Below are positions 36,076 to 64,000 of a DNA stretch of 64,000 nucleotides, one piece after another. This DNA comes from Sulfurospirillaceae bacterium (GTDB taxonomy: Bacteria; Campylobacterota; Campylobacteria; Campylobacterales; Sulfurospirillaceae), in contig JAWVXD010000006.1 in NCBI GenBank assembly GCA_033723415.1, positions 76,149-140,148 on the forward strand, given 5' to 3'. The notes below the pieces were generated by a model. That model saw only the letters and a list, made by a program, of their open reading frames with translations. It did no database searches and was not told the origin of the DNA. Every line of letters begins with the position of its first letter. Position 1 is the first letter of the stretch. The translations under genes were made by a program, and so were the position numbers.

Positions 36076-36076
36076 A

Positions 36077-37249: not shown

Positions 37250-37313
37250 TCTATTGTCTTTATTCAGATGATTTCATCAAATTTGCAATCAATATAAAAA
37301 TTGAGATAAAAAA

Positions 37314-38963: not shown

Positions 38964-39448
38964 TGGCTCTTTTAATTGATGCTCTTATCTCTTTTGTAGG
39001 TCTTTTTCGAGGTCTTTTTATCGGCGGTGGTCTTGTAGCTCGTATTTTCACTTGGCTTACTTCTGGTATTGGTGGAATAATTACTTTATTGACAACAATC
39101 GGTGCTAAGATTTTCGGTGGTTGGCAACTCTTTGGCATGATGTGGTCTTTGGTTTCTTCTTATGCTGCCATTGAGCTTATACGTCGTATTCTTCTTGTTT
39201 CTTTTGTTTCTGTAGTTATGGGTGCTGTTATTAATTATGCATTAACTCATGTCATCATTTATCAGGGCGAAACTGTTCATTCTCTCTTTATTTCTTTGAT
39301 CTCGTCTGTTGATGCTCTTGGTCCTTTAGGTCATAACTTCCTAGTTTTTTGTTATAAATTTGGTATCTTTACTGATCTCCAAATTATTATTACTGTGATG
39401 TTTTACACTCTTATTGCTCGTATTACATTACATATACTTTTTAAGTAG
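38963..39448 (+). CDS. pVI-like hydrophobic minor coat protein
   Basis: Hydrophobic 161 aa between pIII and pI; TAATG coupling. Confidence 0.6.
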   Translation: MALLIDALISFVGLFRGLFIGGGLVARIFTWLTSGIGGIITLLTTIGAKIFGGWQLFGMMWSLVSSYAAIELIRRILLVSFVSVVMGAVINYALTHVIIYQGETVHSLFISLISSVDALGPLGHNFLVFCYKFGIFTDLQIIITVMFYTLIARITLHILFK

Positions 39449-39454
39449 TTTGTC

Positions 39455-40588
39455 ATGATATTTGGTTTTGTTGGTCCTGGCGGTTCTGGTAAATCTGCTG
39501 TTGCTACTTCTCTTGTGATAGAAAATCTTTCTTCTTATGATATTATTATTACGAATGTCTATAAATTTAATAAAGACAATTCTATTCTTGATATTGCTAA
39601 ACAAAAACAAACTGAAATTGAGATTATACATTTCGATTCTACACATGAAGATTTTATCCAAGTTCTTAATGATATTGAAATTCGTAACGCTGATTTGCCT
39701 ATGGATGAAAAATTCAAAATCCTTGTTGTTTATGATGAGTGTCATAAGGCTCTTAGGCGTTATTCTAACGCTCAAGACGATGATATCTATTTGAGTGATT
39801 TTCTCTCTGAATCTAGGCATTTGCATTGTGATTTCTTTCTTATTACTCAAGGTATTAAAAAAATTTCTGATATGTATAAGGGTGAGTTCAAAGCTTGGTA
39901 TGTTGCTGTAGATGATCAGTTCAAAGTATCTGCTAATACTATTGAATTTAGAAAAATGGATCAAGAAAATAAAGTTAAAATTGGTATAAAACGATTTAAA
40001 AAATCCACTAAGTGGCGTGGTGCTTCTGGTGCTTATTATAAAGTTTTCGATCTCTATGACAGTGAAGATGACGGGGATGAGCGTATTAAAGACGGGATGT
40101 CCTTTCTTGCTAAAAAGAAATATATTTTTATTCTTGCTGTTTTATTTACATTGACTATGTTTTATTTTGCTTTTAAAAGTGTTCATAGTCTCATTTCTTC
40201 AAAAGATTCTAAATTGACGCATCCAAACTCTAAAATTGTTTCTCATTCTTCAGATAAAAATATTAAATTTGTGTCTGATAAAAATACAACTATTGTTTAC
40301 AGTTCTCGTTTTGATGTTCTATCCAAAAATCTTTCTGCTAATAAAATTGTTGGTTCTTATGTTTCTATTACTTGTCTGTATGACTCTTTAAATCACTTAT
40401 ATATATTTCCGAATAGAACACTTACTGAAAAGAACTTTGATGATTTAAACAAGCTTTTCTTACTTGAAATTATCAATATTCAAATTATTTCTGAAAATGT
40501 TTATAGATATGAATATTTGGTCTCATCTGACTTGTTACCTATTCTTCAAAATGTTGGTGTTGTTGCCAAGAAAAAAGGAGCTATCTAA
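39455..40588 (+). CDS. Zot-like morphogenesis ATPase (pI)
   Basis: N-terminal GPGGSGKS, VVYDECH, SRH...LITQ, then TM YIFILAVLFTLTMFYFAF. Confidence 0.92.
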   Translation: MIFGFVGPGGSGKSAVATSLVIENLSSYDIIITNVYKFNKDNSILDIAKQKQTEIEIIHFDSTHEDFIQVLNDIEIRNADLPMDEKFKILVVYDECHKALRRYSNAQDDDIYLSDFLSESRHLHCDFFLITQGIKKISDMYKGEFKAWYVAVDDQFKVSANTIEFRKMDQENKVKIGIKRFKKSTKWRGASGAYYKVFDLYDSEDDGDERIKDGMSFLAKKKYIFILAVLFTLTMFYFAFKSVHSLISSKDSKLTHPNSKIVSHSSDKNIKFVSDKNTTIVYSSRFDVLSKNLSANKIVGSYVSITCLYDSLNHLYIFPNRTLTEKNFDDLNKLFLLEIINIQIISENVYRYEYLVSSDLLPILQNVGVVAKKKGAI

Positions 40589-42313: not shown

Positions 42314-42583
42314 ATGAATTGTTTTGTATGTGGTAATCCTATTATTTCAAATGGCAAAGGTTATCGTTGTTCTCTTGGTCGTCCAAAAAATTATTGTTCT
42401 GATACTTGTAAGGATTTTCAGAAATATTTTAATGCTATGCAGAAAAAATTATCTGAAATCAATCTTGATGATGTTCATAAGAGACTTATAAGAGGTGAAT
42501 TGTTTCGTGTGGCTAATTCCTTGAAGTTATCTGTTCCCGGGAATATTGGTACCAAAAAGCCTCGAGATAATAATGAATTTTAA
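42314..42583 (+). CDS. small zinc-ribbon protein upstream of integrase
   Basis: CFVC...GRPKNYCSDTC; RBS GGGAG. Confidence 0.6.
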   Translation: MNCFVCGNPIISNGKGYRCSLGRPKNYCSDTCKDFQKYFNAMQKKLSEINLDDVHKRLIRGELFRVANSLKLSVPGNIGTKKPRDNNEF

Positions 42584-43454
42584 AAAGTATTCTGATCTAT
42601 ATTTACAACTTAATGAGGATGAATGGAAGCCTTCATATCTTGAAAAAAATAGACGTATATGTGAATTAAGACTAAACTTTTTTAATGATAAGAATATTGA
42701 AGATATAAGAGCTAGTGAGATAAAGTTATGGCTTAAAAATATAACTGATGTAAGCAATAAATCAAAACGTAATTATCTATCTGTTTTAAATGGTATTTTA
42801 CAACTTGCCTTAGAAGATGAAATTATCAATAAAAATCCTATCATACATGTTAAACGTCCTCACTATAAAGCACCTAAAATCAAGCCTTTTACTTCTGATG
42901 AAGTTAGTAAAATACTTGAACATTGCAAAGATTATAATTTTAATTTTGTGTACTTTCTGGCTATGGGGTTTTATACGGGTATGAGAACTGGTGAAATACT
43001 ATCTCTTAAAAGAATTGAGGTTGATTTTGAGAATAAAGTCTTACATGTAAATTCTACTCGTAGTAGATTTGGCGAAGGTACTCCTAAAACATATGGAAGC
43101 AAAAGAACGATACCTATTATTAACTCACTTATGCCTTATATACAAAAAATGTATGAACAAAACAATACTCATTATGTTTTGACTAATCAATATGACAGAC
43201 CATATATTGACTCAAAAGTGTTTCATTTTAGGTGGTGGCAACCAATATTTAAAGATTTAAATTTAGAGTATAGAAGACCGTATAATATGCGTCATACTTA
43301 TGCAACAAATATGCTTTATAATGATTTAGTTACTCCTTTACAGCTTGCACAACTTCTTGGACATTCAAATACTCAAATGATTTATGATGTTTATGTTACT
43401 TATTTAGACAGAAATTTAGATGACTTTGACCGCTCAATATCTGTATATAGTTAA
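42573..43454 (+). CDS. int: tyrosine recombinase / integrase
   Basis: YTGMRTGE, PKT, YNMRHTYAT, LLGHS, VY; adjacent to att. Confidence 0.93.
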   Translation: MNFKKYSDLYLQLNEDEWKPSYLEKNRRICELRLNFFNDKNIEDIRASEIKLWLKNITDVSNKSKRNYLSVLNGILQLALEDEIINKNPIIHVKRPHYKAPKIKPFTSDEVSKILEHCKDYNFNFVYFLAMGFYTGMRTGEILSLKRIEVDFENKVLHVNSTRSRFGEGTPKTYGSKRTIPIINSLMPYIQKMYEQNNTHYVLTNQYDRPYIDSKVFHFRWWQPIFKDLNLEYRRPYNMRHTYATNMLYNDLVTPLQLAQLLGHSNTQMIYDVYVTYLDRNLDDFDRSISVYS

Positions 43455-43532
43455 GTTTAAATTCAATTTGGGGTACGCTAGGGATTTTGTGGTTTTCTTA
43501 AAGTGCTTCGGAAGCCCCTATTTTAGGGGGTA

Positions 43533-43561
43533 AATGGCGGACAGAGAGGGATTCGAACCCT
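43533..43561 (-). repeat. att site: tRNA 3'-end copy at the junction of the two prophages
   Basis: AATGGCGGACAGAGAGGGATTCGAACCCT then diverges (TTTGCAAAA); no complete cloverleaf. Confidence 0.88.
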
Positions 43562-43719
43562 TTTGCAAAAACACTAAATGCCCTAAACTAGGGTATTTAA
43601 TTATAAAATAGTCAGTCATTGGCATATAAAAGACTAACTAAATTGGCACACTCTGCCAACTATAATATAGAAAAAAAATGAAACTTTAATTTTATTATGT
43701 ACCTAAAACTAGGTGCATA

Positions 43720-45447
43720 ATGAAAAAGACAATTATTTCAATCGCAGCGGTTATGGCATTGGCTATGACAAGCCCTGCTAATATTTATAATCCATCTACA
43801 GAACATCTACCAAAAGTACAAAATGCAAATTTTAAGCATCGTCAATCTACTCACTATCAATTAAAATTTGTAAAAGATATAGCCCCGGAAATATTTGAAA
43901 ATGCTACTCCAAAATTTCATGTAGATCTTCTAAATTTTATTAACGGTCCCGAACAATTTAAGGCTGCAGCTGTTTTTCGTGGAGCATCAAAATCAACTCT
44001 TTTAAATAAAGTTACTGTACTAAATAGAATTTTCTTTGAGTATGAAGTTTTTACAATGATCGTATCAAGTGATAAAGAAAAAGCTCAAGCCTTTTTAGCA
44101 GATATCAAAGAGTTAATTACCAAAGCACAAGCAAAAGGTTACTCCCTCAGTAAAGGAGATATCTGGACACAATCTAAAATAGAAGTCATAGTCAATAAAG
44201 GGTTAAAAAATAAAGACGGAAAATCTATAGAACACAAATGCTTTATCTCAGTATTTGGAGCAGGACAAGACCCAAGAGGCTATACATATAAAAATGTACG
44301 TCCTACTCTTATAATTGCCGATGACCTGGAATCTAAGAATGGTCAATATGCAATAAGTAACAAACGAAATAGACAAAAACTTAAAGAATGGTTTTATGCA
44401 GATCTTATGCCGGCTCTGCATCCAACTAAAGGACAGATGATAATAATTGGAACTATCCTGCATGAAGATAGCATCTTAAATAATATCATCATGGAAAAAG
44501 AAAATGAGAAGATAAAAATAGAAGATGGAGATGATATCGATGAGTTTGAATCACATAGGAGTGAATGGCATACTAAAATAATTCCAATCATGCAAAATGG
44601 CATAGCATCATGGCCGTCACGTTTCCCTATCAAAAAAATAAAATCTCTCAAAGCCAGGCTTTCAAGAATTGGACTCATTAATGAGTTTTACCAGGAATAT
44701 ATGTGTAAAGCTATGGCCCCGGAAAAACAACTTTTCAAAAAAGAAAATTTTAATTATTTTTCACATCTAAAATATGATATTGCACCTATGCCAAAGATTG
44801 TAATCAAAGATGCTAAGTCAGAGGGGATAATAGAAGCAGCTCGACCAACGCATATCGTAAAAACAAATGGAGAAGAAATACCTCTATCCTCTTGTCAAGT
44901 TTATACGACTATGGATCTTGCATCCTATGATGGAGCAGATAGAACGGCAATCGTTACATTCGCAGTAGATCCACAAGGTTATATATATATTTTAGATATA
45001 TCAGCCGGTCATTGGACTCCTTTTGAAAAATCTTTGCAGGCAGTTAGAGTCCAAGTGATGTTTAACTCGAAAAGATTTGGGATTGAAAAAGCAAGTGCTC
45101 AAAACGACTTCTTTTATACTATCGATGAAGTCCAAAAACAAACAGGTATTAGTATCCCGGTTGAGCCACTATCTCATCATTCTAAAGCTAAAAACTTACG
45201 GATCAGTTTGTTGCACCCTCTTTTTATCACCGGTAGAATTTTCTTTAACCAAAAACAATCATCTACAACAGAGCTTGAATCAGAACTATTGGGATTTGAT
45301 CCTGGAGTAGAAAGTAAACATGATGATCTTATGGATGCTTTGGCCTATATAATGGAATTTATAGCACATAGAACATTTGATGAAGTAATTGAAGATGAAG
45401 AATACTTCGAGGACGAGGACATCCCTGACGATGATGACTGGGCATAA
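43720..45447 (+). CDS. terL: terminase large subunit
   Basis: Walker A FRGASKST, Walker B LIIADDLE, IIGTILH, nuclease TMDLAS..DRTA..IEK..HDDLMDAL. Confidence 0.88.
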   Translation: MKKTIISIAAVMALAMTSPANIYNPSTEHLPKVQNANFKHRQSTHYQLKFVKDIAPEIFENATPKFHVDLLNFINGPEQFKAAAVFRGASKSTLLNKVTVLNRIFFEYEVFTMIVSSDKEKAQAFLADIKELITKAQAKGYSLSKGDIWTQSKIEVIVNKGLKNKDGKSIEHKCFISVFGAGQDPRGYTYKNVRPTLIIADDLESKNGQYAISNKRNRQKLKEWFYADLMPALHPTKGQMIIIGTILHEDSILNNIIMEKENEKIKIEDGDDIDEFESHRSEWHTKIIPIMQNGIASWPSRFPIKKIKSLKARLSRIGLINEFYQEYMCKAMAPEKQLFKKENFNYFSHLKYDIAPMPKIVIKDAKSEGIIEAARPTHIVKTNGEEIPLSSCQVYTTMDLASYDGADRTAIVTFAVDPQGYIYILDISAGHWTPFEKSLQAVRVQVMFNSKRFGIEKASAQNDFFYTIDEVQKQTGISIPVEPLSHHSKAKNLRISLLHPLFITGRIFFNQKQSSTTELESELLGFDPGVESKHDDLMDALAYIMEFIAHRTFDEVIEDEEYFEDEDIPDDDDWA

Positions 45448-46124: not shown

Positions 46125-48806
46125 CTAGAATTTGCTAAGATCTAAGTTAATGCTAGAGTTAGCACTTCTAATCTTATCGAGGCTGAGATTGTATTGAGCA
46201 TCTGCTTTTCTTGCAATGGCAGAGTTATTTTCCGCTTTCGCCTTTTTATACTCGTGTTTTTTAAGGTTTCTGGCTGCACGTGCTTTCTGTAGCAATTCTT
46301 TTTTTGCATTAAAATGTCTTACACCGGCCCCTCGTAAAAGCATTTCTTCATAACTCATAGGCTCATTATAATAGTTTTTAGGATCTGCAAGTCCTGTAGC
46401 CTTACGGATAAATTGTTGCCCATATCTACCAAAAGTAATCGGAGGCATATAGTTTTTTGCCATTTCCAACACTCTTTTAGCAATCTTGCTGCTAGTGCTG
46501 TCATATTTTGTATCAATCTTATAACCTAAAGGTGTTTCGCCATTGATCATACGATAAGCACCTCCAACAAAACCACCGGCAAATTCTAGCGTATCAAAAC
46601 CATCAAATCTCATACCAGGAACCAATCGTCCTGCATTAAGCTGCCAACCTCCGCCAAGTTGTACCCAACTCTTCGCACCGAATGCGTTTGCAGCCCAACC
46701 ACTAGCCGCCCAACTTGGTTTATACATATTTGCCTTATCATTATCACCAAGCCAAGCACTTGCACCTGTTCCCATGAGAGCTGCCTGCAGCATAGCAAAT
46801 TTAAAAGGATGCTTTGCAACTGCTTTCAAGACCATTGGAGTTGCTTTATAAGAGTAATGAACAAAAGGCATTATTCCCATTTTATCCATGACTCTAAAAG
46901 AACCAGGTATCGGAGTCGTATAATCTACATATGCTTCTTGTGATATCTTAAAAGCCGTCTTTTCATCAACTCCCTCAGAGATCTGGCGATAAAAGGAAGC
47001 AAGTTTAAAGATCTTATCTTCCCAATCATATATATGCCTCAAAGCATCGCCACTCTTTGATCCCTTAGAGAAGTAAGCATTTTTCAAGATTGACATGATG
47101 ATCGGCTCTTTTTTGTTATCAAACGGCTGCATCTTCTCCATCATATCTAAACTTGAATTTAGCCCGTACTTATTTGCTTTTTGAACAAGAGCATCAAATT
47201 TACTCCTATCTGTACTCAGCATAGATAATACTTTGGCTAAAGCGGTCATATCACCATGTAAAAAAGAGAGCATTACATTGCTGCCAACATTATAAAGATG
47301 CGTAAAAGGGTTTTTAACCGTTAGATTGACTTTAATGTGATCGATAAGAGGATACCAATAGGTCTCAAAAAGCCCCATATTCTCTTTGACAATCCCTGCA
47401 CCTTTAACAGCATCTGCGACCTCTTTTGGTACATATTTACCTGCTAAAGCACCATATTTTTTGATTCCACCGCCTACTGTTTCATCACTCATCCTTACAA
47501 ACCCGTCTTTTTCTACATCACTTCCAAATGTATCAGCGACATTTTTGAGGGTTTGCGCTTTAAGCAGCTGCACTCTTTGTTCTGCAAGTGTCTTTGGTAT
47601 CACAAAATTTGCATCTTCGATCATCCCAAGTGCAATCCGTTCATCATGCGTTAGATCTTTCCTCGCACGGAAACGCTGATCAAAATAAAACTTCTTGATC
47701 AGTCCCCCTTCTTTGATGCTATCAATATAGTATCGCTTAAGATAATCTTGTATCTTGTTTTTTTCCTGCAGTGCACCGGCCTTGACTAGAGCATCAGCAT
47801 TCGTATCGATGAGATCTCTAATCTTAGTATAAGTCTCTCTCAAATGCTCCGGCAGAGTTGAGGGTTGTTTATCTCCTGTCAAAGCCTGGTGTATAAGGAC
47901 CGATTCATCTGGACTTAGGTGCGTATCTAAAAAGTCTTTGACTTGTGCTGCTTGCTCATGTACTTGAGACATAGCGATCCTAAAGTCTTGTGTAATCTCT
48001 CCGACTTTTTTTGTGATATCGCTAACGGTAGCGAGCCTTTTTATCCTACCACCGCTTATCCTCGTAGTGATCGCTTCATCTACCTTACCAATGATTTGTG
48101 CTGCTTTAGCAAAAGCTTTATCGACAGCAGATCCGTCAATATTTGAGATCTTATCTGCACCAGGAAAGACCATGCTATTTATTTTTTTACCGTTTTTAGC
48201 TATACTTTCACTAGATGCAGGAGGGTGAGGGATGACTATGTTGTCCCGGGCGGTCTTATTGACTGCTTCGTTGAGGGCATTGGACACCTGGGCGCTCTCC
48301 TGTTTCTTATAAAAGGTAATAACCGAATGCCTCCCCTTTACTCCACGAGTTCCAACGATCGCATAATATAAATCTCCATCGATCACCTTCTCATAAAGAT
48401 GATTTACTCTTCCTGTTTGAACACTTTTAGATAAAGAAACTTTCCCCTCTCTTATCACCCGGCCTAGATGTAAAAGTTCATTGAGAGATAAATCATTACC
48501 AAGATGACCTTTTACTATATGTTTTGCACCCATATTTTCAGTGCCCTTGTGTAACCAAACATGATCGACATACTTTCCAAGAGCATCAAGATCTTCTCGT
48601 CTTATTTTCACAGAGTCTTGTACCCCGGAAGCTACTCCAAGCACACCACTCTCTTCTTTTGTCAGATCTCTGCCTAAATAGTTCTTTAATGCCTCTGCTG
48701 CTTGCGCGTATTCTTTAGGATCAAGGTTTTTAGCTTTGATCATATCTGTTATGTCGGCTAAAACTTCTTTTTGTTTTTTTAAGCCGTCTTTACCTTTGCA
48801 ATCCAT
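46125..48806 (-). CDS. large polyvalent/ejection protein with PBECR-like nuclease domain
   Basis: GTENMGAKHIVKGH...RVIREG...SVITFY; C-terminal PFVHYSYKA LPD-like region; TAATG coupling and RBS GAGGAG. Confidence 0.6.
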   Translation of the reverse strand: MDCKGKDGLKKQKEVLADITDMIKAKNLDPKEYAQAAEALKNYLGRDLTKEESGVLGVASGVQDSVKIRREDLDALGKYVDHVWLHKGTENMGAKHIVKGHLGNDLSLNELLHLGRVIREGKVSLSKSVQTGRVNHLYEKVIDGDLYYAIVGTRGVKGRHSVITFYKKQESAQVSNALNEAVNKTARDNIVIPHPPASSESIAKNGKKINSMVFPGADKISNIDGSAVDKAFAKAAQIIGKVDEAITTRISGGRIKRLATVSDITKKVGEITQDFRIAMSQVHEQAAQVKDFLDTHLSPDESVLIHQALTGDKQPSTLPEHLRETYTKIRDLIDTNADALVKAGALQEKNKIQDYLKRYYIDSIKEGGLIKKFYFDQRFRARKDLTHDERIALGMIEDANFVIPKTLAEQRVQLLKAQTLKNVADTFGSDVEKDGFVRMSDETVGGGIKKYGALAGKYVPKEVADAVKGAGIVKENMGLFETYWYPLIDHIKVNLTVKNPFTHLYNVGSNVMLSFLHGDMTALAKVLSMLSTDRSKFDALVQKANKYGLNSSLDMMEKMQPFDNKKEPIIMSILKNAYFSKGSKSGDALRHIYDWEDKIFKLASFYRQISEGVDEKTAFKISQEAYVDYTTPIPGSFRVMDKMGIMPFVHYSYKATPMVLKAVAKHPFKFAMLQAALMGTGASAWLGDNDKANMYKPSWAASGWAANAFGAKSWVQLGGGWQLNAGRLVPGMRFDGFDTLEFAGGFVGGAYRMINGETPLGYKIDTKYDSTSSKIAKRVLEMAKNYMPPITFGRYGQQFIRKATGLADPKNYYNEPMSYEEMLLRGAGVRHFNAKKELLQKARAARNLKKHEYKKAKAENNSAIARKADAQYNLSLDKIRSANSSINLDLSKF

Positions 48807-51800
48807 TAGCATATCTCCTCTACAATTTCTGGTTTGATTTTTCCATTTTGTCCGACATGTTTATCTTCAAAAGAAGCCAACTTATTCCCTGCATCTTTTC
48901 CATCGATCTGATTATTTTCGATATCTTTTAAAGTCTTTTGATAAAAAGCTTCCTGATCTAATATCCTTCTATTCTTTGCATCGATCATCTTTTGGATATT
49001 TGCTTTAGCATTGACGATTTTCTTCTCGTAATCTGCCTTATAGAGTTGTTTCTTTTTGGGATCTTTTGTTTTTGCTATTTTTTCTAAGAGATCTCCAAGA
49101 TATTGATTCGGACGATCACTTTTCAGCCTTGTTCCTAAAGTAGATATCTCTTTTTTAGTAGTTGCGATGCCTCTTGTGATAGCATCTCTGCGTGATTTTA
49201 GAAAATACCCCTCTTCATTGACCGCCTGCAGCTCGTTTTCTAACCTGTTATACTCGATTTGTAGCTCTAGCTCTTTACGTTTCACTGGGTCCTTTTCCAT
49301 CTGCAACATAAACTCTTCTTCTGTAGGCATCGCGCTAGCACCATCTACGATTTCGATTCGATCCTTTGGTTTCGCATCCCAAAGCGCCTCATTCCATCCT
49401 CTCTTATTTGCGACCGTTTTATACATCAATTCATCAAAAGTACCGGCTTGAAAGAAGTAATGAACATTGACAGAATCATTAATATTGCCAAAGCGAATAC
49501 CTCTGCCGCCTCTTTGTTTTAGTTCTGCAGGAGTCCAGGGGATATCCACGTTGTAGATATCTTTTGTATATTTTTGGATATTCATCCCCTCGCCTGCCCC
49601 TTTTGTCGTACCGATCACGACTTTGACTTTGCCTTTATCATAAGCATCAACAATCGCTTGTTTTAACTCTACAGCCTTGCGTCCACTTGCTCCTCTGATT
49701 TCTTTTCCTGTGGTAGGGTCTGTTATCTCTTTACCTGAGATGATTGCGATCTCTTGAGGTTTGTATTTTTTTGAAGCTAAGAGTTTTTGTTTCATCTCTT
49801 GATGTAAGTTTTGATCTAAAGTGGCATCAAAGATATTGCCGTCCTTATTTAGATCTCTTGGGACTTGTTGTTCATGCCCTGCATTATCGAGAAAGATGAT
49901 CTGCCCGGCATTTTTATCTTTACTTCTTCTCTCCAAAACTTTTTGGATCGTCGATTCTAGTTTATTATTATCAGGGGTAGGATCGATAAAGTCTCTCACC
50001 CCAGCTCTTTGATATGCTCTTGGATCTGTACTAGCACTCACACCCTCCGAGAATATCCCCATCATTTTATTACGCTTTGAACTGTCACTTTTAGCTTCTA
50101 GAAGTCTTTTTTTTATATCACTAAATACGATATCACTCTCATGACTGCCATCGAGATAATGAGTATTTACTTTTTCATCCGGCAATGTGATGATCCCCTT
50201 AGATTTAAAATCTTCCATTGAGATACGCTCAACATATCTATCCATGATCGCTCTTAAATCATAAGCATTTTTAATCGCATTCAAGCCATATTCAATACCG
50301 CCTCTTTTGTTCATATTTGCACCAAAATCAAAGAAACGATCTGCAAAATCTCTATCTGTGTAGATACCGTATTCATTAAAAATACTGTTATCTAAATGTT
50401 TCAGCATCGTATATATTTCCATAGGTTTATTTGGTGTAGGAGTTGCATCAAACATAAAAATGTTTTTACCGTTATTCTTTTCACTGATATAACGAGTTTT
50501 AAATCTAAAATCATAAGCCAAAGCACTATCAAGTGTTACGACATGAGTATTTTTATCAAGCGTGAGACTAAAAGGTTTACCAAGCTTAAAGTTCACCAAT
50601 TTACTATTGATGCCTATATTTTTAAAAGCCCTGGCTTCATCGGCAAATATCGCATCGATCCCTAGATTATCTATCGTGATACGTTTATCAAGGTTTTCTC
50701 TACGAAGCAGCTCTTTATACTTCTTGATCTTCTCTGTTTGCAAAGCAAGTGCCCTGCCTTTTAGATCTTCTGTTTTTAGATTTTCGTTCAATAATTCATC
50801 GACATATCTCATTTCAATATCATGAGGAAGTTTCAGTTGTGAAAATCCCTCATGAGAGATCAAGATATAATCAGCTGAATTATTCCCAAGTTCGTATAGC
50901 TTCTTGCTCCTGGTACTTTTTTCAAGATTAAAGAGATTCACAATCTTGGCATCCGGGAATGCTCTCTTTATCTCTTTTTCCCAATTCCCTATAACTTTGG
51001 AAGGGACTACAAACAAAGGCTTCTTGGCAGCACCTTTATTTTTCAAAGCCCGTGCGAGTATAACAGCCGATAGCGTTTTACCCCCACCGACATCATGTGC
51101 GTTGATCCCTTTCCCCTCATATAAACTTTTAGTAACCCACTGTATTTGATTATCACGAGAGATCAACGTCGGTTCGATTTCTTTTAAAGTATCTTGGATC
51201 AGATAACTTGCTTTTCCGTAATCAGGGGAGACATACCCGTTAAATTTACGATTATATATAGATTCTATTTTTTTTGTTAATTTTGGATCAGAGAGGATCT
51301 TCTCTTTGATCTTGGCTAAAGTACTTTGGACTTCATCATTCGCTTCTCTTAATCTTCTACGATATGAAGACATCGTTTCATCTTTTTTGATAGATATCAA
51401 TGCTTTTGAATTGATATAATTATCAAAGATCGGACCAAAGCCGGTGTCATACTCTCTTATCTTTTGTTCGCCCTTTTGTATTGTTCTCTCGACCTTACGC
51501 AGAGGGTATATCTCTATACCTTTTTCTAACAACCAAGGTTCATCACCTCTTAGAGAAATATTTTCGATAGTTTTTTTCTCCGGCAATAATTCTTCCAAAG
51601 CTGCTTTTTGTTTTTCTAATTTTGCAAAAACGACACCATCATCTTTATACTTTTCAAATGCAATATTGAGATTATCAAGCTTATCGTAAAGTTTCCCACT
51701 ATAGTACAAGATATCATTTTGAAGTTTCCCTGGGGCAATGACACTATATCCCTCTTTGAGAGCATTATGGAAATCTTCTTTTTTTATATATTCCCCACCT

Positions 51801-54800
51801 TGAGAGATATCAACGATTCCTTTATTGTCCTCATGATATAAAAGACGAGATTTTATAGGGGAATTACTATCTACCGTAAGTTTTCCGCTATCTTCAAATT
51901 TTGTCTTTTGTTCAAAGATTTGTGCCGGTTGAAATTTTTTATCAAAATAACTTCCTAGCTCATATAGTTTCTCTTTTTCACCGATCTTGGCAAAAAGTTT
52001 ATTTAGAGATTTATCGGTATAAGGATGCACTTTATAGTTTTTCCTATATAGATCGATCAGATCTTGCCCTTTTAATATATCTTGATTTTCTCCGGCCCTT
52101 GCGATCTCATTTAGAAGAGAGATCTTTTTACCATCAGGTGTATCGGTAATATCTTTATATATTTGTGCTCCGTCATTGATATCACTAAAATGGATCTTCT
52201 TTTGAGATACTTCAACCCTACCGTCTTTTAAAACGATGCCTTTTCTATCCAACCCATAAGCTTCAAGCCCATGTGCATCGGCATATTTCCAAAAAGCACT
52301 TGACTCAGTAGGTAAGTTTTTTTCTATGTTTAAACTATGATCTTTTGTTTTGATCTTCTGATAATCAAGTTTCATTTTTGAGTAATCTGCCTTACCGCTT
52401 ACGACATAAGCCTTGGTACCAAACTGTTTATTAACCCCTACTTCCATCTTTCCAAGTATCTTTTGGGGATTTTTTTGGAAATAATCATTAAGATAGATAC
52501 CATCTTGTGTTTTAGTAGATTTGATAAATGCTTCATTTTGTGCGAGCTGTTTTCCTGTTGCGCTCACTCCCTCAGGACGCTTTTGCAAAAAGATCACATC
52601 AGTACCGACATCAGTATGTGCATTTTTGCTAAACGTACCCTCCGGCAACCGATATGCCCCGATGATATTTGATTTATCCATCAGCTCTTTACGGACTTTA
52701 AAGTCCGATTTATCCATAGTCCCTTTACTGGTCACAAAAGTGATGACCCCATTATCTTTAGCCTTATCTACCGCACTCACAAAATAATAATCATGTAAAG
52801 CTTTGATATCTGGTCTCACATCGATGCTATTTGCCCCTCTTGTTTCTATAAAAGGGACATTAGATATGATGAGATCATAACCGTTGCCTTTAAAATTTTC
52901 AAAGCTCGTATTATAATGTTTGGCATCAGGGTATAAGATCTTATTGATCTTATAAGCTTTAGGATCAGTGTCTATCGTAGTCCAATCAAGATGCGGTTTA
53001 TGTCCTACAAAATTTCCACTGCCAACTGCAGGCTCTAGTGCTTTTTTCATAGGAACACCGGAGCGATCAAGTGCTGCATATATCCCTCTAACTGTCTCAT
53101 AAGGAGTATAATGTTCACTCAAGCTTCCATAAGTACCACTATCGATACCACCGGTACCGGTGTATTTTCTAAGGATTTCTTTATCTTGCTGAGTAATCTT
53201 TTTAGTTTTCTTTTTGAGAATATTATCAACTTCGGCATTGATTGTTTTTCTCTCACTCTTACTCATAAAAATAAAAAAACTATCTCTCAAATCTAAATTT
53301 TGTGTTGATTTTTCAACCGTTTTTGTCGTATCAGATATCTTTCTGCTTTGTCCATCAGAAACAACATGATCTTTTTGATTTTGTACGCTTCCTTTCGTTT
53401 GCGTGCCGAGCGGATTCTCTTGTCTAAGTTTTTCTTTTGATACATTGACACCCTCCTTAGGTTTTACATCTGGCCCTGTATTGCTGCCATCTTTCTGCTG
53501 TACCATTGGGTCCCCTGAAGATCCGGAAACACTATCACCATTGCTCCCAGAGGTTTGCTGTCCTGCCACTTGGTCAAATCCCTTGGATATTGCATTATCC
53601 TGGCTAACTGTGATAGGATTTTGTCCATCATTCGGTAAGGTTCCGCTACCATTATCGATGCTTGGGATCTGATCGTTTTGATTGGAGATTGCATTGCTGC
53701 TTCCCCCTTGTGGATCTGTTCCGATAGACTGAGGCGTTCTTGGTATGTCAGTTTTTCCTCCAGGAATGAGGCCATCTCCATTGTGTTGGCTTGAGATATT
53801 TTCTGCTGCTGCTGTTGCATGTTCTGCTCCTTTTTCACTTATCTTTGATATAAAATAATTCTTTGCGATATCACTATTACCTTGTGCGTATGCTTCGGTT
53901 AAAACTTTTGCCTGCTCTTCACCAAACCCGGCATTTAAAAGACTTTGTGTATATTCATCAGGGGTACGGATAGGATTTGCGATATCACGATTGAGAGCAT
54001 GGATGACATTCCACCCGGCCAATCTATTCTCTACTCCCATTCCATCATTCACCCAGTTTGTGATCATCATCTCATCAGGAGTTGGCTTATATTTGGCATT
54101 GATTAAAGTTTTTAATTCACTTGGCATGATCTGAGGGTTATCTTTGACTTCTTTTTGGATGCCTTTTGTCATATCATTAAATCGTACAGCCGAAGCATCT
54201 GTGGATTGTGTGATTTGATCATTGACCTTTTGAACTTCATTTTCAATGATATTTATTTTTGCTTCTTGATAATCCAATGTAGCCATAGTGTCCAAATGAT
54301 TTTTAAAGGCAACGATATCTTTATAGGTAGAAGCATCAACTGCACTTTGTGTCTTACCTTCTACAGCATCTTTGAGAACTTGTGTCTTTATATCTTGAGG
54401 CTTACCGGCTAGTGTTTCATTAACATAAGAAGCAAGATCAAATTGTTTAGGTTTTAAAGAAGAACCGGTGTTGATAGTATTTCCGGAACTATCAGCTTTT
54501 TGCATGATCGGGATATCAAAAAGTTGATTTTTTGAGATATTTTCAAAATCCTGATTCGTCTTTGCGTCTTTAATACGGGCTTCTTTAGTTTTTAGCCAAA
54601 GTTTAGATAAGCCCGATGCAGTTTGATGTAAAGCCTCTCCTATGAGTGGAGTTGCAATCGCTCCGGTAAGAGCTCCTGCAGCAATATTCCTATTGCCCCC
54701 ATATGCAGAAAGACCACCACTTAAAGCACCGGTTGCAGCAAAAGATATAACTCTTCTTGCCGCATTGACCGTACCGATTGGGACAAGGTTTACAGGATCT

Positions 54801-55219
54801 ATAAAACCACCGGCAAGTTCCCCTGCAGTAGAAGCTATATCCCATTTGTCTTTTGGTAACGTAGCGTGATAATTTTTTTGATATTCATTGATACGATTGA
54901 TCCAACCGTCTATTTTATGTGTGACATCATTGGGTTGATCTTTCCTGAGAGGATCTAAAAAGTTTGCAACATTATCAGCAACTTTAAGATATCCATTTGC
55001 TGTTTCTAGTGCAGATTTTCCAACTCCCGCACCAAAACGAACGATACTATTATCCATCTTTGTAGCATCTTTTTGTCTAGCATCTTTTAAAGCTGCTTGA
55101 TCTTGCTGCATATTATCCCAGGCGCTTTGTGCCATAGCACGGATATGATTTGCCTGATAACCTTTGTCTTGGAGCTGTTTTATAACATCATTGCCAAGGA
55201 TATCTCTTGGGGTAGGCAT
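48806..55219 (-). CDS. giant DarB-like protein: N6-adenine MTase + SNF2/SF2 helicase, putative ejection protein
   Basis: ALEPAVGSGNF, IISNVPF, AHDVGGGKT, FADEAR, ATPTPN, GEGMNIQ, QRGGRGIRFGN. Confidence 0.8.
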   Translation of the reverse strand: MPTPRDILGNDVIKQLQDKGYQANHIRAMAQSAWDNMQQDQAALKDARQKDATKMDNSIVRFGAGVGKSALETANGYLKVADNVANFLDPLRKDQPNDVTHKIDGWINRINEYQKNYHATLPKDKWDIASTAGELAGGFIDPVNLVPIGTVNAARRVISFAATGALSGGLSAYGGNRNIAAGALTGAIATPLIGEALHQTASGLSKLWLKTKEARIKDAKTNQDFENISKNQLFDIPIMQKADSSGNTINTGSSLKPKQFDLASYVNETLAGKPQDIKTQVLKDAVEGKTQSAVDASTYKDIVAFKNHLDTMATLDYQEAKINIIENEVQKVNDQITQSTDASAVRFNDMTKGIQKEVKDNPQIMPSELKTLINAKYKPTPDEMMITNWVNDGMGVENRLAGWNVIHALNRDIANPIRTPDEYTQSLLNAGFGEEQAKVLTEAYAQGNSDIAKNYFISKISEKGAEHATAAAENISSQHNGDGLIPGGKTDIPRTPQSIGTDPQGGSSNAISNQNDQIPSIDNGSGTLPNDGQNPITVSQDNAISKGFDQVAGQQTSGSNGDSVSGSSGDPMVQQKDGSNTGPDVKPKEGVNVSKEKLRQENPLGTQTKGSVQNQKDHVVSDGQSRKISDTTKTVEKSTQNLDLRDSFFIFMSKSERKTINAEVDNILKKKTKKITQQDKEILRKYTGTGGIDSGTYGSLSEHYTPYETVRGIYAALDRSGVPMKKALEPAVGSGNFVGHKPHLDWTTIDTDPKAYKINKILYPDAKHYNTSFENFKGNGYDLIISNVPFIETRGANSIDVRPDIKALHDYYFVSAVDKAKDNGVITFVTSKGTMDKSDFKVRKELMDKSNIIGAYRLPEGTFSKNAHTDVGTDVIFLQKRPEGVSATGKQLAQNEAFIKSTKTQDGIYLNDYFQKNPQKILGKMEVGVNKQFGTKAYVVSGKADYSKMKLDYQKIKTKDHSLNIEKNLPTESSAFWKYADAHGLEAYGLDRKGIVLKDGRVEVSQKKIHFSDINDGAQIYKDITDTPDGKKISLLNEIARAGENQDILKGQDLIDLYRKNYKVHPYTDKSLNKLFAKIGEKEKLYELGSYFDKKFQPAQIFEQKTKFEDSGKLTVDSNSPIKSRLLYHEDNKGIVDISQGGEYIKKEDFHNALKEGYSVIAPGKLQNDILYYSGKLYDKLDNLNIAFEKYKDDGVVFAKLEKQKAALEELLPEKKTIENISLRGDEPWLLEKGIEIYPLRKVERTIQKGEQKIREYDTGFGPIFDNYINSKALISIKKDETMSSYRRRLREANDEVQSTLAKIKEKILSDPKLTKKIESIYNRKFNGYVSPDYGKASYLIQDTLKEIEPTLISRDNQIQWVTKSLYEGKGINAHDVGGGKTLSAVILARALKNKGAAKKPLFVVPSKVIGNWEKEIKRAFPDAKIVNLFNLEKSTRSKKLYELGNNSADYILISHEGFSQLKLPHDIEMRYVDELLNENLKTEDLKGRALALQTEKIKKYKELLRRENLDKRITIDNLGIDAIFADEARAFKNIGINSKLVNFKLGKPFSLTLDKNTHVVTLDSALAYDFRFKTRYISEKNNGKNIFMFDATPTPNKPMEIYTMLKHLDNSIFNEYGIYTDRDFADRFFDFGANMNKRGGIEYGLNAIKNAYDLRAIMDRYVERISMEDFKSKGIITLPDEKVNTHYLDGSHESDIVFSDIKKRLLEAKSDSSKRNKMMGIFSEGVSASTDPRAYQRAGVRDFIDPTPDNNKLESTIQKVLERRSKDKNAGQIIFLDNAGHEQQVPRDLNKDGNIFDATLDQNLHQEMKQKLLASKKYKPQEIAIISGKEITDPTTGKEIRGASGRKAVELKQAIVDAYDKGKVKVVIGTTKGAGEGMNIQKYTKDIYNVDIPWTPAELKQRGGRGIRFGNINDSVNVHYFFQAGTFDELMYKTVANKRGWNEALWDAKPKDRIEIVDGASAMPTEEEFMLQMEKDPVKRKELELQIEYNRLENELQAVNEEGYFLKSRRDAITRGIATTKKEISTLGTRLKSDRPNQYLGDLLEKIAKTKDPKKKQLYKADYEKKIVNAKANIQKMIDAKNRRILDQEAFYQKTLKDIENNQIDGKDAGNKLASFEDKHVGQNGKIKPEIVEEIC

Positions 55220-59887: not shown

Positions 59888-60101
59888 TATAATGCCCTCC
59901 TGTAAATTTTGTAGCACTCCAATCTACTTGTACTTTAAAAAGTAGTTTTCTAGCAATATGTGCATGAAGTATTGCTGCGCTTACAAGCATTGCTTTGAAA
60001 GCTAGAAGCTGCAAAGGGCTTGGTAAGTGAGCGTATTGATGTAAAGCAAAAAGCAAGAGTGTAAAAAATAGCAATATTAGATCAACTATAATTCGTTTCA
60101 T
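59835..60101 (-). CDS. putative holin (3 TM)
   Basis: Three hydrophobic segments, immediately upstream of endolysin. Confidence 0.7.
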   Translation of the reverse strand: MKRIIVDLILLFFTLLLFALHQYAHLPSPLQLLAFKAMLVSAAILHAHIARKLLFKVQVDWSATKFTGGHYIAIAFYIVIIYAYAIGG

Positions 60102-60358
60102 CACTCACCCTCACTATTTTTACAATGGTTATACTCAAGCTTTTGAAGGAAACAGCATATTTTTTTATCAAACCAGGTTGCCCTACCCTCTGCTTTTAAT
60201 CTACCGATATGACTGCTTATCGTCTCATCCTGACTACCGTTCCATACAAGGACATTAAAAGTTTGGTCTAAAACCAAAAGAACCCTCATGGCCTTGCTTC
60301 TTTTAGCTACATCTTCATCAAACTTTGCAAACAAAACTTTCTTTTCTTCTTGTGTCAT
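60101..60358 (-). CDS. conserved small phage protein
   Basis: LDQTFNV...DETISS..GR...HC. Confidence 0.6.
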   Translation of the reverse strand: MTQEEKKVLFAKFDEDVAKRSKAMRVLLVLDQTFNVLVWNGSQDETISSHIGRLKAEGRATWFDKKICCFLQKLEYNHCKNSEGE

Positions 60359-60360
60359 TA

Positions 60361-61212
60361 TCAACTCCAAACTATCGCTTTTACTGCATCAACAGTAGTA
60401 GCATTTTGTATTTGTTTTATTATGTCTTGAAATTTGCCTAACATACTTGCATAAGCACTCGCATAAGCATCTGCCTTTTGGATAATCTTATCTACGAGCT
60501 GTTGTTTTGTTTCTCCTAAATTTCGTGATGCTAAAAGTGCATCTATAAATGGTGTGGCTATTGTATTATCTACATTCCATGCTCTTGCCTCTTGCTCTTG
60601 CTTATCATAGCTTGCTGGCTCCCAAACAGCTACTTCGCCAAGTATGCCATCAAGCGTAGCCTTCTGTCCTAGTCTTATTTCTTCACTTTTACATGTTTTG
60701 GCATCTGTAAGAGTTATATTCCAAGACGTACCATCCCAAGAGTAATAATTTATATCAAAATCTTTAGGAATTATATTTGGTGCATATTTTGTATTCGGTG
60801 CTGTTCTAGTATCACCAATACCATTATATTTTCCAGTAGTTTTATCTACTAATACACTATCTACCCAAACACCTGAAGTCCATTTTTCTGTTTTTTTAGT
60901 AGGAGCGGAATCTGCTTCTTGATAATTTCCATCATTTACAAAATATCCAATATAGTTTCCATCATTATCAATACAATAAACTTGCTTTTTTACTGGTGCT
61001 GTTGATGCTGTAGTAAATACGAAAGAATTTATAAACGCTATAGCATCACTTTCTTCTTGTGCTGTTAAATCTATCCCATCCATTTGCTTCAATGTAGGTT
61101 CAAAATAAAAATTAGTGCCTGTTATAAAACTAGGTTTAGTTGCCAATTCTTTATAGAAATTATCACCGTTGATTACGGTCAGAAGACCATTAACATAGGT
61201 TATTACTTGCAT
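60361..61212 (-). CDS. tail fibre assembly-associated protein
   Basis: WDGTSW, SYDKQEQEARAW...TPFIDAL...RN, C-terminal AIVW. Confidence 0.65.
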   Translation of the reverse strand: MQVITYVNGLLTVINGDNFYKELATKPSFITGTNFYFEPTLKQMDGIDLTAQEESDAIAFINSFVFTTASTAPVKKQVYCIDNDGNYIGYFVNDGNYQEADSAPTKKTEKWTSGVWVDSVLVDKTTGKYNGIGDTRTAPNTKYAPNIIPKDFDINYYSWDGTSWNITLTDAKTCKSEEIRLGQKATLDGILGEVAVWEPASYDKQEQEARAWNVDNTIATPFIDALLASRNLGETKQQLVDKIIQKADAYASAYASMLGKFQDIIKQIQNATTVDAVKAIVWS

Positions 61213-62441
61213 ATTTTCATTCCTTTTCTATAATCAAAATCTTTATCACTTATAAAACCACCCACGAAGTATCCATCAACAGAATATGTATGGCTACCAT
61301 CTACTACCAAAGAGTAAAGTTGCTTGTCTATTAAGTCGGTTTGAATTATTTGCTTTATTTCTTCTTCTCCAGATACTGTAGCTACTTTAGAGCCAATAAT
61401 GAGTTCTCCAAAGTTAGTTTTATTAGTATCAATAAAATCATACCAATATGGTATGATTTGCCCTTTTTCATCTATAACATCATAAAACTTACATTCATTT
61501 TTAGAGTTTTCTACATTTAAAGCTAAAAATCCATTTCTGTCTGCATTGCATATAGGATGGTCATCTGTTGTTATTAAATTATTAATTTTATAAAGTATCC
61601 TATTGCCTTGAAGTGGTCTATCTAAATATAATACTTTTTGAACTTTACCATACATATCTAGTACTTTATCATTTGGTACTATATGTTGTATTTCTTTATA
61701 AGAGCCATCTGACATAAGAACTTTTGCATTATATAGGAAGCATGTACCGCCACCACTAGCAGGGGTCCAGTAATATGTCCCATTTGCGCCATCAGCACCT
61801 ATCCCTCCTGTTGTTCCACTGACTGGACTATTACCACTAATATTTATAGTTACTCCACCATCTCCATAATTCCAAACTTGACCAGATCCTCCCGCTCCAC
61901 CACAACCACCATATGTTATGCTATAAGTAGTTCCAGTTCCACCACTAGCAGCATTTCCACCGTTTCCACCATTTCCTCCATTTCCGCCTTTAATAGTCCC
62001 ATTAATTATTAAATTAATTGTTTTACCAGTAAAACCGGTAAAATCAATACCATATCCACCAACTCCGCCATTTCCACCATTCCCACCAAAATATGTTGAA
62101 GTATTATGACAATTAGTTATAGAGATAGTAGGACTTCCTGCTGCACCTGTAGCTCCAATAGTTCCGGTTATACCACTTATTACTATCCCACTAGGGATAG
62201 TAATATTAAACGTATCAGCATCAGATGGATTTACATAAGAGCTTAAAAGTATTCCTGTGGAAGATGTTGCTGTTATTGAGCTTGTAAATGTATAATCAAC
62301 TGCTCCACTATATACCACCTGCCAAGTACCGCCTATATTTTTATAAGCTTTTTTTAGTTTTGTCCAGGTACCGCTGATATTTTTCCATATGTATTTAATT
62401 GGATACCAAGCTCCACCGATATTTTTATAGGTTTTTGCCAT
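61203..62441 (-). CDS. Gly-rich tail adhesin with C-terminal Hint domain
   Basis: 3x KNI[GS]GxW, GGNGGNGG tracts, then CFLYNAKVLMSDG...TDDHP...YSLVVDGSHTYSVDG. Confidence 0.75.
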   Translation of the reverse strand: MAKTYKNIGGAWYPIKYIWKNISGTWTKLKKAYKNIGGTWQVVYSGAVDYTFTSSITATSSTGILLSSYVNPSDADTFNITIPSGIVISGITGTIGATGAAGSPTISITNCHNTSTYFGGNGGNGGVGGYGIDFTGFTGKTINLIINGTIKGGNGGNGGNGGNAASGGTGTTYSITYGGCGGAGGSGQVWNYGDGGVTINISGNSPVSGTTGGIGADGANGTYYWTPASGGGTCFLYNAKVLMSDGSYKEIQHIVPNDKVLDMYGKVQKVLYLDRPLQGNRILYKINNLITTDDHPICNADRNGFLALNVENSKNECKFYDVIDEKGQIIPYWYDFIDTNKTNFGELIIGSKVATVSGEEEIKQIIQTDLIDKQLYSLVVDGSHTYSVDGYFVGGFISDKDFDYRKGMKICK

Positions 62442-62450
62442 TAATCATCC

Positions 62451-63845
62451 TTAGTACTGAAACCATATATCACCATCCACTCCACCACTTGCTGCTGCTG
62501 TTGATGTGTATTGGGTGCTTCCGTTCCATTTAGCAGAATTTACAGCAGTAGCGGTAATCCCAAGTTTTGAATCTAAAGCAGATTGCAGTCCTGCGATATT
62601 AGATATTCCAAGAGCATCAAGCTCACTACGATTGAGAGTTACAAAATCTACTATTTCCTGTAAAGTATCAAGTGCCGTATCGCTACTTGATAATAAAGTA
62701 GTTATATTGTCAATTAGTCCTTTTAAGACTTTACCTTGATTAGCGCTTAGTGGCTTGGTTGTGTCGGTAGATGTTAAGATATCTTGTATATCTGCAATGT
62801 TTGATTTAGCCTGCAATGCTATTTGTTGAGCCGAGCTTATAGGTTTATTAATATCGCTTGTATTATCAACTTTATCTAGTCCAATACTCGATTTATCCAA
62901 AACGGTCGCAATCCACTCTCCACTAGCTGTATCGAATATAAGCGATGATTTATCAACTTTTCCGGTTGTATCCACATCACTTAATCCATCAATTGAGCCA
63001 TTAGAGATAGCTTGTGCTTTTTGTTTCCAGTGATAAGCGCTGTATTCAGTTGTAGGGGTAGCTGTAAAAGTACCATCACCATTTGAAGTATAAACATCTA
63101 CAAAAACATCTTCGGCTTGATTGGCATAGCTATCAGCAGTTAGACTCTCTGCTTGTGCGATCCAAGCTTGAAGTTTTGCATTTTGCGCATTTGTATATGC
63201 ATTTTGTATATCTGTTATATTTGTTGCATTGATATTGATAGCATCAAGATCTGTAAAGATAGCATCAAGTTTTGTTTTGTCGGCATATAAACTATCAAGC
63301 GCATCTTTATCAGCAAATAACGCATCAAGCGTGGCTTTATCAGCAAATAAACTATCCAAAGTCGCCTTATCTGCATAAAGAGTATCAAGTACATTTTTGT
63401 CGGCATATAAACTATCTAAAGTTGCTTTATCCGTATACAAACTATCAAGCGTAGCTTTATCAGATACTAAAGAGTTGATACCATCAATAATTGCAGCTAA
63501 GGCATTGATATTTGTTATATTTGTTGCATTGATATTGATAGCATTAAGATCTGCAAAAATATCATCAAGTTTTGCTTTATCCGCGTACAAACTATCAAGC
63601 GTAGCTTTATCAGATACTAAAGAGTTGATAGCATCAATAATTGTAGCCAAGGTATTGATATTTGTTATATTTGTTGCATTGATATTTATATCACCTACAT
63701 TCTCAGCCACTAGATCAAGATTTGCCAAATTTGGCGTTATCGCTTTTATCGCTGCCGTTGCTGCATCTATTGCATCAAGTGCGGCTTGTATCTCTTGCAC
63801 CTTTTTTGAAGCGAGCTTAAGCCCATATATATCAATTCCTCCCAT
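62451..63845 (-). CDS. tail fibre with 10-residue repeat shaft
   Basis: DKATLDSLYA repeats, GLDKVDNTSDINKPIS, LSANQGKVLK, LDTLQEIVD, DGDIWFQY. Confidence 0.78.
   Translation of the reverse strand: MGGIDIYGLKLASKKVQEIQAALDAIDAATAAIKAITPNLANLDLVAENVGDININATNITNINTLATIIDAINSLVSDKATLDSLYADKAKLDDIFADLNAININATNITNINALAAIIDGINSLVSDKATLDSLYTDKATLDSLYADKNVLDTLYADKATLDSLFADKATLDALFADKDALDSLYADKTKLDAIFTDLDAININATNITDIQNAYTNAQNAKLQAWIAQAESLTADSYANQAEDVFVDVYTSNGDGTFTATPTTEYSAYHWKQKAQAISNGSIDGLSDVDTTGKVDKSSLIFDTASGEWIATVLDKSSIGLDKVDNTSDINKPISSAQQIALQAKSNIADIQDILTSTDTTKPLSANQGKVLKGLIDNITTLLSSSDTALDTLQEIVDFVTLNRSELDALGISNIAGLQSALDSKLGITATAVNSAKWNGSTQYTSTAAASGGVDGDIWFQY
63211..63690 (-). repeat. 30-bp-period tandem repeats nested in 150/300-bp units
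   Basis: TGTTATATTTGTTGCATTGATATT at ~63213, 63513, 63663; ACTATCAAGCGTAGCTTTATC variants every 30 bp. Confidence 0.85.
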
Positions 63846-63998
63846 TATGAAAGCCTCCCTAAAAATTCTTCAAAAAGCGCCTTTATATTTGCTAGAAACG
63901 CTTCAGTATTCAGATCCTTTATCACTTCGCAAGCTGCAAGTAGATCTCTTTCATCACTTTCAGTCATCGGTAACTTCCTCCCCCGCAAATGCTTTTAG
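63845..63998 (-). CDS. phage protein, 5'-truncated
   Basis: Open frame ...LKAFAGRKLPMTESDERDLLAACE...LGRLS*, TAATG overlap with tail fibre. Confidence 0.55.
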
Positions 63999-64000
63999 AT

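Follow-up and report, generated by a model that had tools for sequence, protein, structure and literature searches.

Introduction

Self-processing by Hint domains is not unprecedented, as the chemistry is already known from inteins, bacterial intein-like (BIL) domains, Hedgehog and Vint. In earlier work, Cys1 together with a TxxH motif is described as driving the N-S shift, which in Hedgehog is abolished by H329A and strongly reduced by T326A (PMC9163320). Domains with neither the terminal Asn nor a +1 nucleophile are described as not splicing, type-B BIL domains as having no intein C-terminal motif and undergoing N-terminal cleavage, and class 3 inteins are defined by a Cys at block F4 (PMC7765530). 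Hedgehog ligation requires C143 (PMC12054796), and Vint proteins are defined by VWA and Vwaint domains (PMC2362128). On the phage side, gp38 of S16 docks on the fibre trimer via three Trp on three helices (PMC6851490), and peptidase S74 is a C-terminal self-cleaving appendage on receptor-binding proteins (PMC12143355). Here, we describe P0001, a protein with likenesses to several of these systems. It is encoded by a minus-strand open reading frame (ORF) of 412 codons, 62441..61203, in a 64,000-nucleotide stretch (the window) of a Sulfurospirillaceae bacterium genome (GCA_033723415.1, contig JAWVXD010000006.1, positions 76,149 to 140,148), and is the fibre-tip adhesin of a tailed prophage.

The reading we prefer, with about even confidence, is that the terminal Hint domain of P0001 caps the receptor-binding end, is optional, and cuts itself off by an N-S shift and hydrolysis. 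An original prediction, made from the letters of the window alone, had proposed a gp38-like adhesin fused to a non-splicing Hint domain; it had not recognised that the domain is part of a large viral family whose end is conserved in a way of its own, nor that the Trp repeats are a putative fibre-docking adaptor.

Fold and catalytic residues of the Hint domain

The AlphaFold model of residues 228-412 has a mean predicted local distance difference test score (pLDDT) of 95.9 and a predicted template modelling score (pTM) of 0.91. In a search of 48,161 PDB representatives, the top 32 rows were all Hint or intein chains, the next unrelated row having Z 2.6; the best match was BIL2 (6tmm; Z 17.1, root-mean-square deviation (rmsd) 2.8, 139 aligned residues), and Hedgehog (1at0) reached Z 14.1 over 124 residues. 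On the strength of this model, P0001 from Cys234 onward is a true Hint fold, as had been predicted. The sequence profiles, some of them proposed earlier as a check, speak weakly by themselves: Hint (PF01079) was matched weakly at 12.8 bits (cut-off 29.7), below its cut-off like Hom_end_hint (24.6 bits, cut-off 32.1) and Vint (23.3, cut-off 27), while Hint_2 and PT-HINT gave no match to P0001 at E<=0.1.

The features of this part of the protein are listed below, with conservation among the family rows, that is, the 129 of 167 stored proteins that cover the whole Hint domain (P0080, a canonical His-Asn domain, slipped into these).

61203..62441, minus strand: P0001, fibre-tip adhesin with terminal Hint domain (ORF and full-length model)
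61257..61742, minus strand: Hint domain, residues 234-395 (model and structure search)
61740..61742, minus strand: Cys234, Hint Cys1 and predicted nucleophile of the N-S shift (Cys in 129/129)
61620..61622, minus strand: Asp274, candidate counterpart of Hedgehog D46 (His/Asp in 90/129, with Arg next in 91)
61557..61568, minus strand: block B, T292-D-D-H295 (His 128/129, Thr/Ser 126/129)
61311..61313, minus strand: Ser377, block F position 4 (Asn 90, His 20, Ser 8 and Asp 3 of 129)
61254..61265, minus strand: block G, V393-G-G-F396 in place of V-H-N-[C/S/T] (family consensus V-[TS]-G-W)
61206..61256, minus strand: residues 396-412, acidic-aromatic tail, modelled with high confidence (D401 114, F402 120 and Y404 126 of 129)

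The three repeats, the Gly runs, Cys234 at codon 61742-61740, block B (TDDH), block F (YSLVVDGSHTY) and the VGG end were all as first noted. In the full-length model, the terminal Asn of the RecA and GyrA inteins aligns to residue 395, which places G394-G395 in the His-Asn positions, and Hedgehog 258-401 aligns to P0001 234-396. By this structure alignment, P0001 has no His-Asn, no +1 nucleophile, no counterpart of Hedgehog C143 (C400) and no sterol-binding region. With Cys1 and TxxH intact and the terminal His-Asn and +1 nucleophile missing, the domain would be unable to splice, in agreement with the original prediction, and probably removes itself. P0001 has lost the family-typical N268, H297, N377, T394, W396 and W407, yet has kept C1, T292, H295 and H384, a combination that fits cleavage only. 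Cleavage before Cys234 would yield fragments computed at 23.0 and 20.5 kDa, where ~22 and ~21 kDa had been estimated.

The features compared set the family apart from inteins, type-A BIL domains, Hedgehog Hog domains and Vint. P0001 shares its fold (BIL2 6tmm, Z 17.1), Cys1, block B and the block F His with type-A BIL domains and class 1 inteins, but has no His-Asn, +1 Cys/Ser/Thr, F4 Asp or C-extein, so that no splicing is expected. Unlike class 3 inteins, it has S377 at F4, and Cys occurs there in 0/129 family rows. Vint (PF14623, 8r2c) is likewise a C-terminal, non-splicing Hint, and the isolated P0001 domain scores 27.0 bits against it, exactly at the cut-off, though the match spans profile positions 2-72 of 166 only; its structural score (Z 10.8) is below those of BIL, intein and Hedgehog, and no VWA match was found in P0001 or in 105 family rows.

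In its working, P0001 would come closest to the initial step of Hedgehog or type-B BIL processing. Type-B BIL domains resemble the family in their missing intein end and N-terminal cleavage, and the two nearest Atlas models (template modelling score 0.75) come from clusters with Hint_2 members (18% and 74%). Their profile (Hint_2, PF13403), however, is unmatched by P0001 and only weakly matched in 17/105 family rows (best E 1.1e-5), and the V[TS]GW block G, the DFDY tail and the viral distribution are the family's own. Type-B BIL domains also have Cys, Ser or Thr at their C-terminal position; P0001, with G394-G395-F396, does not, whereas Thr/Ser394 is present in 103/129 family rows, so that the family as a whole may lie closer to them.

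The Hedgehog Hog domain (Hint plus sterol-recognition region, 1at0) has in common with P0001 a C-terminal Hint, Cys1 with TxxH and the missing terminal Asn. It too is fused behind many unrelated N-termini, and possibly shares an Asp/His general base on the same strand. It differs in that C143 is replaced by Gly395 in P0001, where a 17-residue tail follows and there is no sterol-recognition region, and in that the family has Asn/His/Ser at F4 and sits in viral, non-secreted host proteins; P0001 also falls short of the PF01079 cut-off given above. The family tail might nonetheless play a role like that of an adduct-recognition region.

This likeness raises the question of ligation. The Hint domain could be a ligase or 'harpoon' that stays latent until an outside nucleophile attacks the thioester. 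Candidates for that nucleophile are small molecules, lipids, a Cys close by, and amines or hydroxyls on the host surface. The attack would modify the adhesin C-terminus covalently or tie it to the host, the DFDY tail serving to recognise the adduct. We consider this rather unlikely. The tail is strictly conserved, the domain is terminal, and it is attached at what we infer to be the distal face of the adhesin; His/Asp274 followed by Arg resembles the Asp/His described as activating cholesterol in Hog domains (PMC7765530 and PMC9163320). The likeness of D274 to D46 is drawn by eye, however, needing a one-residue gap, and three PDB profile searches gave no Hedgehog alignment over that strand. 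Hedgehog-like ligation is thus weaker than originally proposed: Gly395 stands at the place of the required C143, only 17 residues follow block G, and there is no sterol-recognition region. P0001 also has Gly at 394 and no Cys in the 50 residues before Cys234, and the domain is dispensable in orthologues.

A viral family of Hint domains

Among 1.84 billion representatives searched, 838 matched at E<=0.001, the weaker ones including other Hint types, and 223 at 1e-10. Median pairwise identity across the family rows is 40%, and the near-invariance of Cys1 and the block B His at this level argues that the N-S shift is under selection. In the aligned sequences, two features are particular to the family, a V[TS]GW block G and a DFDY tail, with Thr/Ser at 394 in 103, G395 in 120 and an aromatic residue at 396 in 120 of the 129 rows. 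The domain is nearly always C-terminal, the protein ending at most 63 residues after block G in 128/129 rows (median 18), and it also closes the protein in 21 of 22 further long hits. BLAST links sort the N-terminal parts into 48 groups, a number probably inflated by over-splitting at low complexity. Family proteins are labelled merely 'Hint domain containing protein' in UniProt, and in the open-access literature, as far as available in part (including a jumbo-phage review, PMC10189870, PMC5874633, PMC3556154 and PMC5259590), we found no description of the family.

Giant-virus metagenome-assembled genomes account for 10 of the 42 IMG/VR loci with a family Hint, and most of the 13 loci whose gene order was viewed are phage structural modules. 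This spread over bacterial phages and giant viruses fits a universal nucleophile. Among GenBank phages, the single record with the Hint of P0001 (29.7%) is Providencia phage PSTNGR1 (QPB11246), whose member lies behind a T7-type fibre; a search with P0059 gave no record. Locus searches confirmed 3 of 431 candidates on metagenome contigs as relatives, none of 96 on genome contigs and none of 601 on viral contigs.

A wider form of the ligase reading holds that this virus-specific family is a C-terminal protein ligase that activates viral surface-protein ends as thioesters, in the present case for covalent bonding of the adhesin to a small molecule or the host surface; we regard it as doubtful. 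In its favor, some proteins carry one or two splicing-type His-Asn Hints before the family Hint, and Cys is enriched just before Cys1 (76/129 rows; 7.4% versus 1.7%, in kin that are not independent). A hydroxyl swap between positions 377 and 394 falls mostly within one clade and was not counted as evidence.

Alternatively, the Hint may normally be retained on the virion, with slow or no cleavage, where it would serve the tip as one more domain for binding or shielding. Stand-alone copies without Cys1 lie beside family genes (L028, L037, L038), which means that the fold can persist without catalysis; moreover, Pro or beta-branched residues are common at -1, and the F4 Asp is absent. Against this stand the 129/129 Cys1 and 128/129 block B His in fused copies, and a full-length model with no fixed packing of Hint on adhesin (pTM 0.49). 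We therefore judge retention to be improbable.

Several family loci have unusual compositions. Large virion proteins of L002-L005 (829-6582) and L018/L019 (2944-7035), with DUF4815 in L002, have two, or one, His-Asn Hints in tandem before the terminal family Hint (4/129 rows), and splicing would there build a short Gly/Cys-rich C-terminal peptide. The stand-alone Hint-like genes without Cys1 lie at 110-829 in L028, 7252-7977 in L037 and 2686-3411 in L038. P0037, P0082, P0087 and P0156 have only ~50 residues before Cys1, and two of these segments end in CACxCxC, as a peptide precursor might. Cys-rich members have radical SAM genes nearby in L006 (3323-4660) and L042 (8075-9514). In L040 (5896-6564, P0108), a hydrophobic segment of about 36 residues stands alone before Cys1, in a gene context that looks eukaryotic-viral.

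Predicted docking of the adhesin on the tail fibre

The remainder of P0001 consists of three parts, and the fibre gene directly upstream supplies the candidate docking site.

62304..62441, minus strand: residues 1-46, three KNIxGxW beta-hairpins (repeats 62426-62406, 62384-62364 and 62342-62322)
61767..62303, minus strand: residues 47-225, gp38-like beta-helix with five polyglycine runs and variable loops (structure match)
61743..61766, minus strand: residues 226-233, flexible Gly-rich linker with T233 as the -1 residue (pLDDT <50 at 227-232)
62451..63845, minus strand: trimeric tail fibre upstream of P0001, 464 residues (PF22337, tail-fibre PHROGs)
62454-62495, minus strand: predicted docking site, the last residues of the fibre, ending GDIWFQY (complex model)

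The K[NK][IV][GS]GxW repeats begin at residues 6, 20 and 34. When three copies of the fibre's last 70 residues were modelled with P0001 residues 1-226, the hairpins docked on the trimer's C-termini with a score of 0.85, the best of three controls reaching 0.00; partner pLDDT was 93, and contacts agreed between runs to at least 97%. The mark of 0.85 is reached by 116/157 solved and 2/215 mismatched pairs, counts that are only rough for the present complex. In the complex model, the interface comprises residues 1-44, including W12, W26 and W40, and each C-terminal fibre strand pairs with one repeat. Residues 1-46 are thus predicted to form a pseudo-threefold adaptor, one repeat per fibre chain, and the model supports binding of a P0001 monomer to the trimeric fibre tip through three Trp.

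Behind the adaptor, Gly makes up 33% of residues 85-222, in runs at 90-102, 119-131, 152-161, 178-187 and 209-221. The best non-Hint rows for full-length P0001 are two gp38 structures, S16 (6f45_D; Z 8.1, rmsd 3.3, 121 aligned, over residues 30-208) and PP01 (9v85_C; Z 7.8), both near the tool's caution level of 8, and they agree with the gp38-like fold first proposed. The modelled protein shares with T-even gp38 (6f45, 9v85) a monomer on a trimeric tip, three adaptor Trp, a beta-helix with polyglycine II and variable distal loops. It differs in having three beta-hairpins rather than three helices, five Gly runs rather than ten and an added terminal Hint. The gp38 profile PF05268 is unmatched by P0001, though precomputed for P0003 and P0004. 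Column conservation in the variable loops (103-118, 164-177 and 221-233) is 0.22-0.36, compared with 0.46-0.78 elsewhere. Since the five Gly runs alternate out and back, the chain end is expected at the distal face, beside the least conserved loops, and this topology would place the Hint at the distal, loop-bearing end of the adhesin; the full-length model leaves the two unfixed relative to each other.

Gain, loss and exchange of the Hint module

Of 24 adhesin homologues aligned, seven carry no Hint and terminate near the junction. In L058, a like fibre ending lies upstream, the adhesin has a real stop after a Cys-rich tail, and the same downstream gene follows; in L059, a Hint-less adhesin likewise has a real stop and the same downstream gene. 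In the tree of the N-terminal part, a single clade of Hint-less adhesins was rejected by the approximately unbiased (AU) test (delta log-likelihood 235, p-AU 1e-19). A quick tree places the Hints of P0003 and P0012 in another clade; identity to P0001 is 69% in the N-terminal part and 35% in the Hint for P0003, compared with 53% and 63% for P0002. Patchy presence and cross-clade Hints together indicate a module that comes, goes and is exchanged at a single junction. In L028, the last few residues of a Hint-less paralogue are those found just before Cys1 in P0092, but the match is weak (E 0.043) and was not used. Radical SAM is also weakly matched in Hint-less L058 (3988-5052), and in L057 (1027-1374) a gene for aspartate decarboxylase (PanD), a self-cleaving type of protein, lies between the adhesin-Hint gene and the conserved downstream gene.

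These orthologues bear on the suggestion that the adhesin needs the Hint as an intramolecular chaperone of the peptidase S74 kind, or that the Hint fastens it covalently to the virion, to which we give very little credence. Its C-terminal, self-cleaving position is like that of S74, and the family often lies in tail-fibre modules; in L001, L006, L007 and L042, S74-bearing fibres are encoded directly upstream of family genes (four genes picked by eye), so that the two domains occur in adjacent genes. S74 (PF13884) is, however, of unrelated fold and chemistry, aids trimer folding, and is absent from P0001 and its upstream fibre, whereas the Hint of P0001 is optional on a monomer, which needs no trimerisation aid. 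Syntenic orthologues that end in real stops without a Hint (L058, L059) do not support the original proposal of a required chaperone, nor does that of an anchor agree with the complex model, as hairpins that dock by themselves would attach the adhesin to the virion with no need of the Hint.

Patchy gain, loss and swapping, as well as the relaxed residues in P0001, would also suit a near-neutral passenger that spreads by recombination among variable fibre-gene ends and is tolerated as self-removing. This seems to us quite improbable, as the domain is kept, with its conserved tail, on about 48 N-terminus groups, and with no homing endonuclease and a terminal position it has no known drive.

A putative removable cap

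Taken together, we propose that P0001 is a monomeric receptor-binding adhesin that caps the trimeric fibre non-covalently via its three Trp hairpins, with the Hint module hanging by a flexible linker from the distal end of the polyglycine domain. By analogy with inteins and Hedgehog, Cys234, aided by T292/H295 and perhaps D274, would turn the T233-C234 bond into a thioester, and without Asn, a +1 nucleophile or C143, this thioester would be resolved by water or a cellular thiol. The 20.5 kDa domain would then be freed, leaving a 23.0 kDa adhesin that ends where its Hint-less relatives end. Perhaps the cap masks or solubilises the tip until maturation, or perhaps it yields a mixture of capped and bare tips.

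Self-cleavage, also foreseen in the original prediction, would by this analogy be the most likely outcome with these residues intact, and several points weigh against the cap. Cleavage of P0001 is deduced from its residues and from known chemistry, and the cap's benefit is a guess. The family keeps more than hydrolysis needs (G395, the aromatic residue at 396, the DFDY tail and H/D274), residues that could be there for a further, specific reaction. P0001 lacks the usual Asp of block F, and the -1 residue is Pro in 31/129 family rows; Pro at this position may block cleavage. Moreover, 2 of the 7 Hint-less homologues (L058, L059) were checked in DNA, and the AU test used 2,000 replicates (10,000 are advised) and one constrained search.

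If the family is indeed a compact one restricted to the C-termini of viral surface proteins, it would bring to Hint chemistry a branch whose active site ends in a new way. Even with plain cleavage, receptor-binding proteins would have a second type of self-removing cap, of no kinship to S74, that might govern when the tip can bind. Were it to ligate, the domain would offer a covalent link between phage and host or a means of lipid tagging, and would give protein engineers a natural source of C-terminal thioesters. Independently of either, the three-hairpin adaptor on the GDIWFQY fibre end is a testable alternative to the three-helix dock of gp38.

Gene neighbourhood and prophage setting

The gene for P0001 lies within a tailed prophage that is interrupted by the end of the contig (C6). 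The minus-strand order is the 464-residue tail fibre, P0001, a 283-residue gene, small genes, endolysin, spanin, virion proteins and a DarB-like protein, with the terminase and integrase further left. The part of the prophage within the window showed no head genes; the contig breaks off a short way upstream of the fibre, and no overlapping contig was found. The downstream gene, whose product is probably a fibre assembly factor, is conserved behind the adhesin with or without a Hint.

60361..61212, minus strand: downstream gene of 283 residues (L057, L058, L059)

An intact copy of the P0001 Hint was absent from 60 related genomes, 14 of which had weak Hint matches, mostly to other inteins, and from 400 genomes of the phylum at E<=1e-15. 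A Logan contig of run X1 covers 60048-63242 with zero differences from the window, but X1 is possibly the source sample, so the match is no independent confirmation. No Hint-skipping joint was found in the contigs of X1, and no RNA run is listed as containing the locus, the only DNA run being X1.

Other features of the window lie at some remove from P0001. The 464-residue fibre region (62451-64000) has coiled-coil-like repeats of about ten residues. The DarB-like protein (48806-55219, 2137 residues) has methyltransferase and SNF2 helicase matches and lies among presumed ejection proteins. A filamentous-phage-like cluster (36044-40588 and 42546-45447), with a pIV secretin (phrog_1012) and a Zot-like protein (phrog_197), adjoins an integrase and the terminase of the tailed prophage, so that two elements are seemingly stacked at one site.

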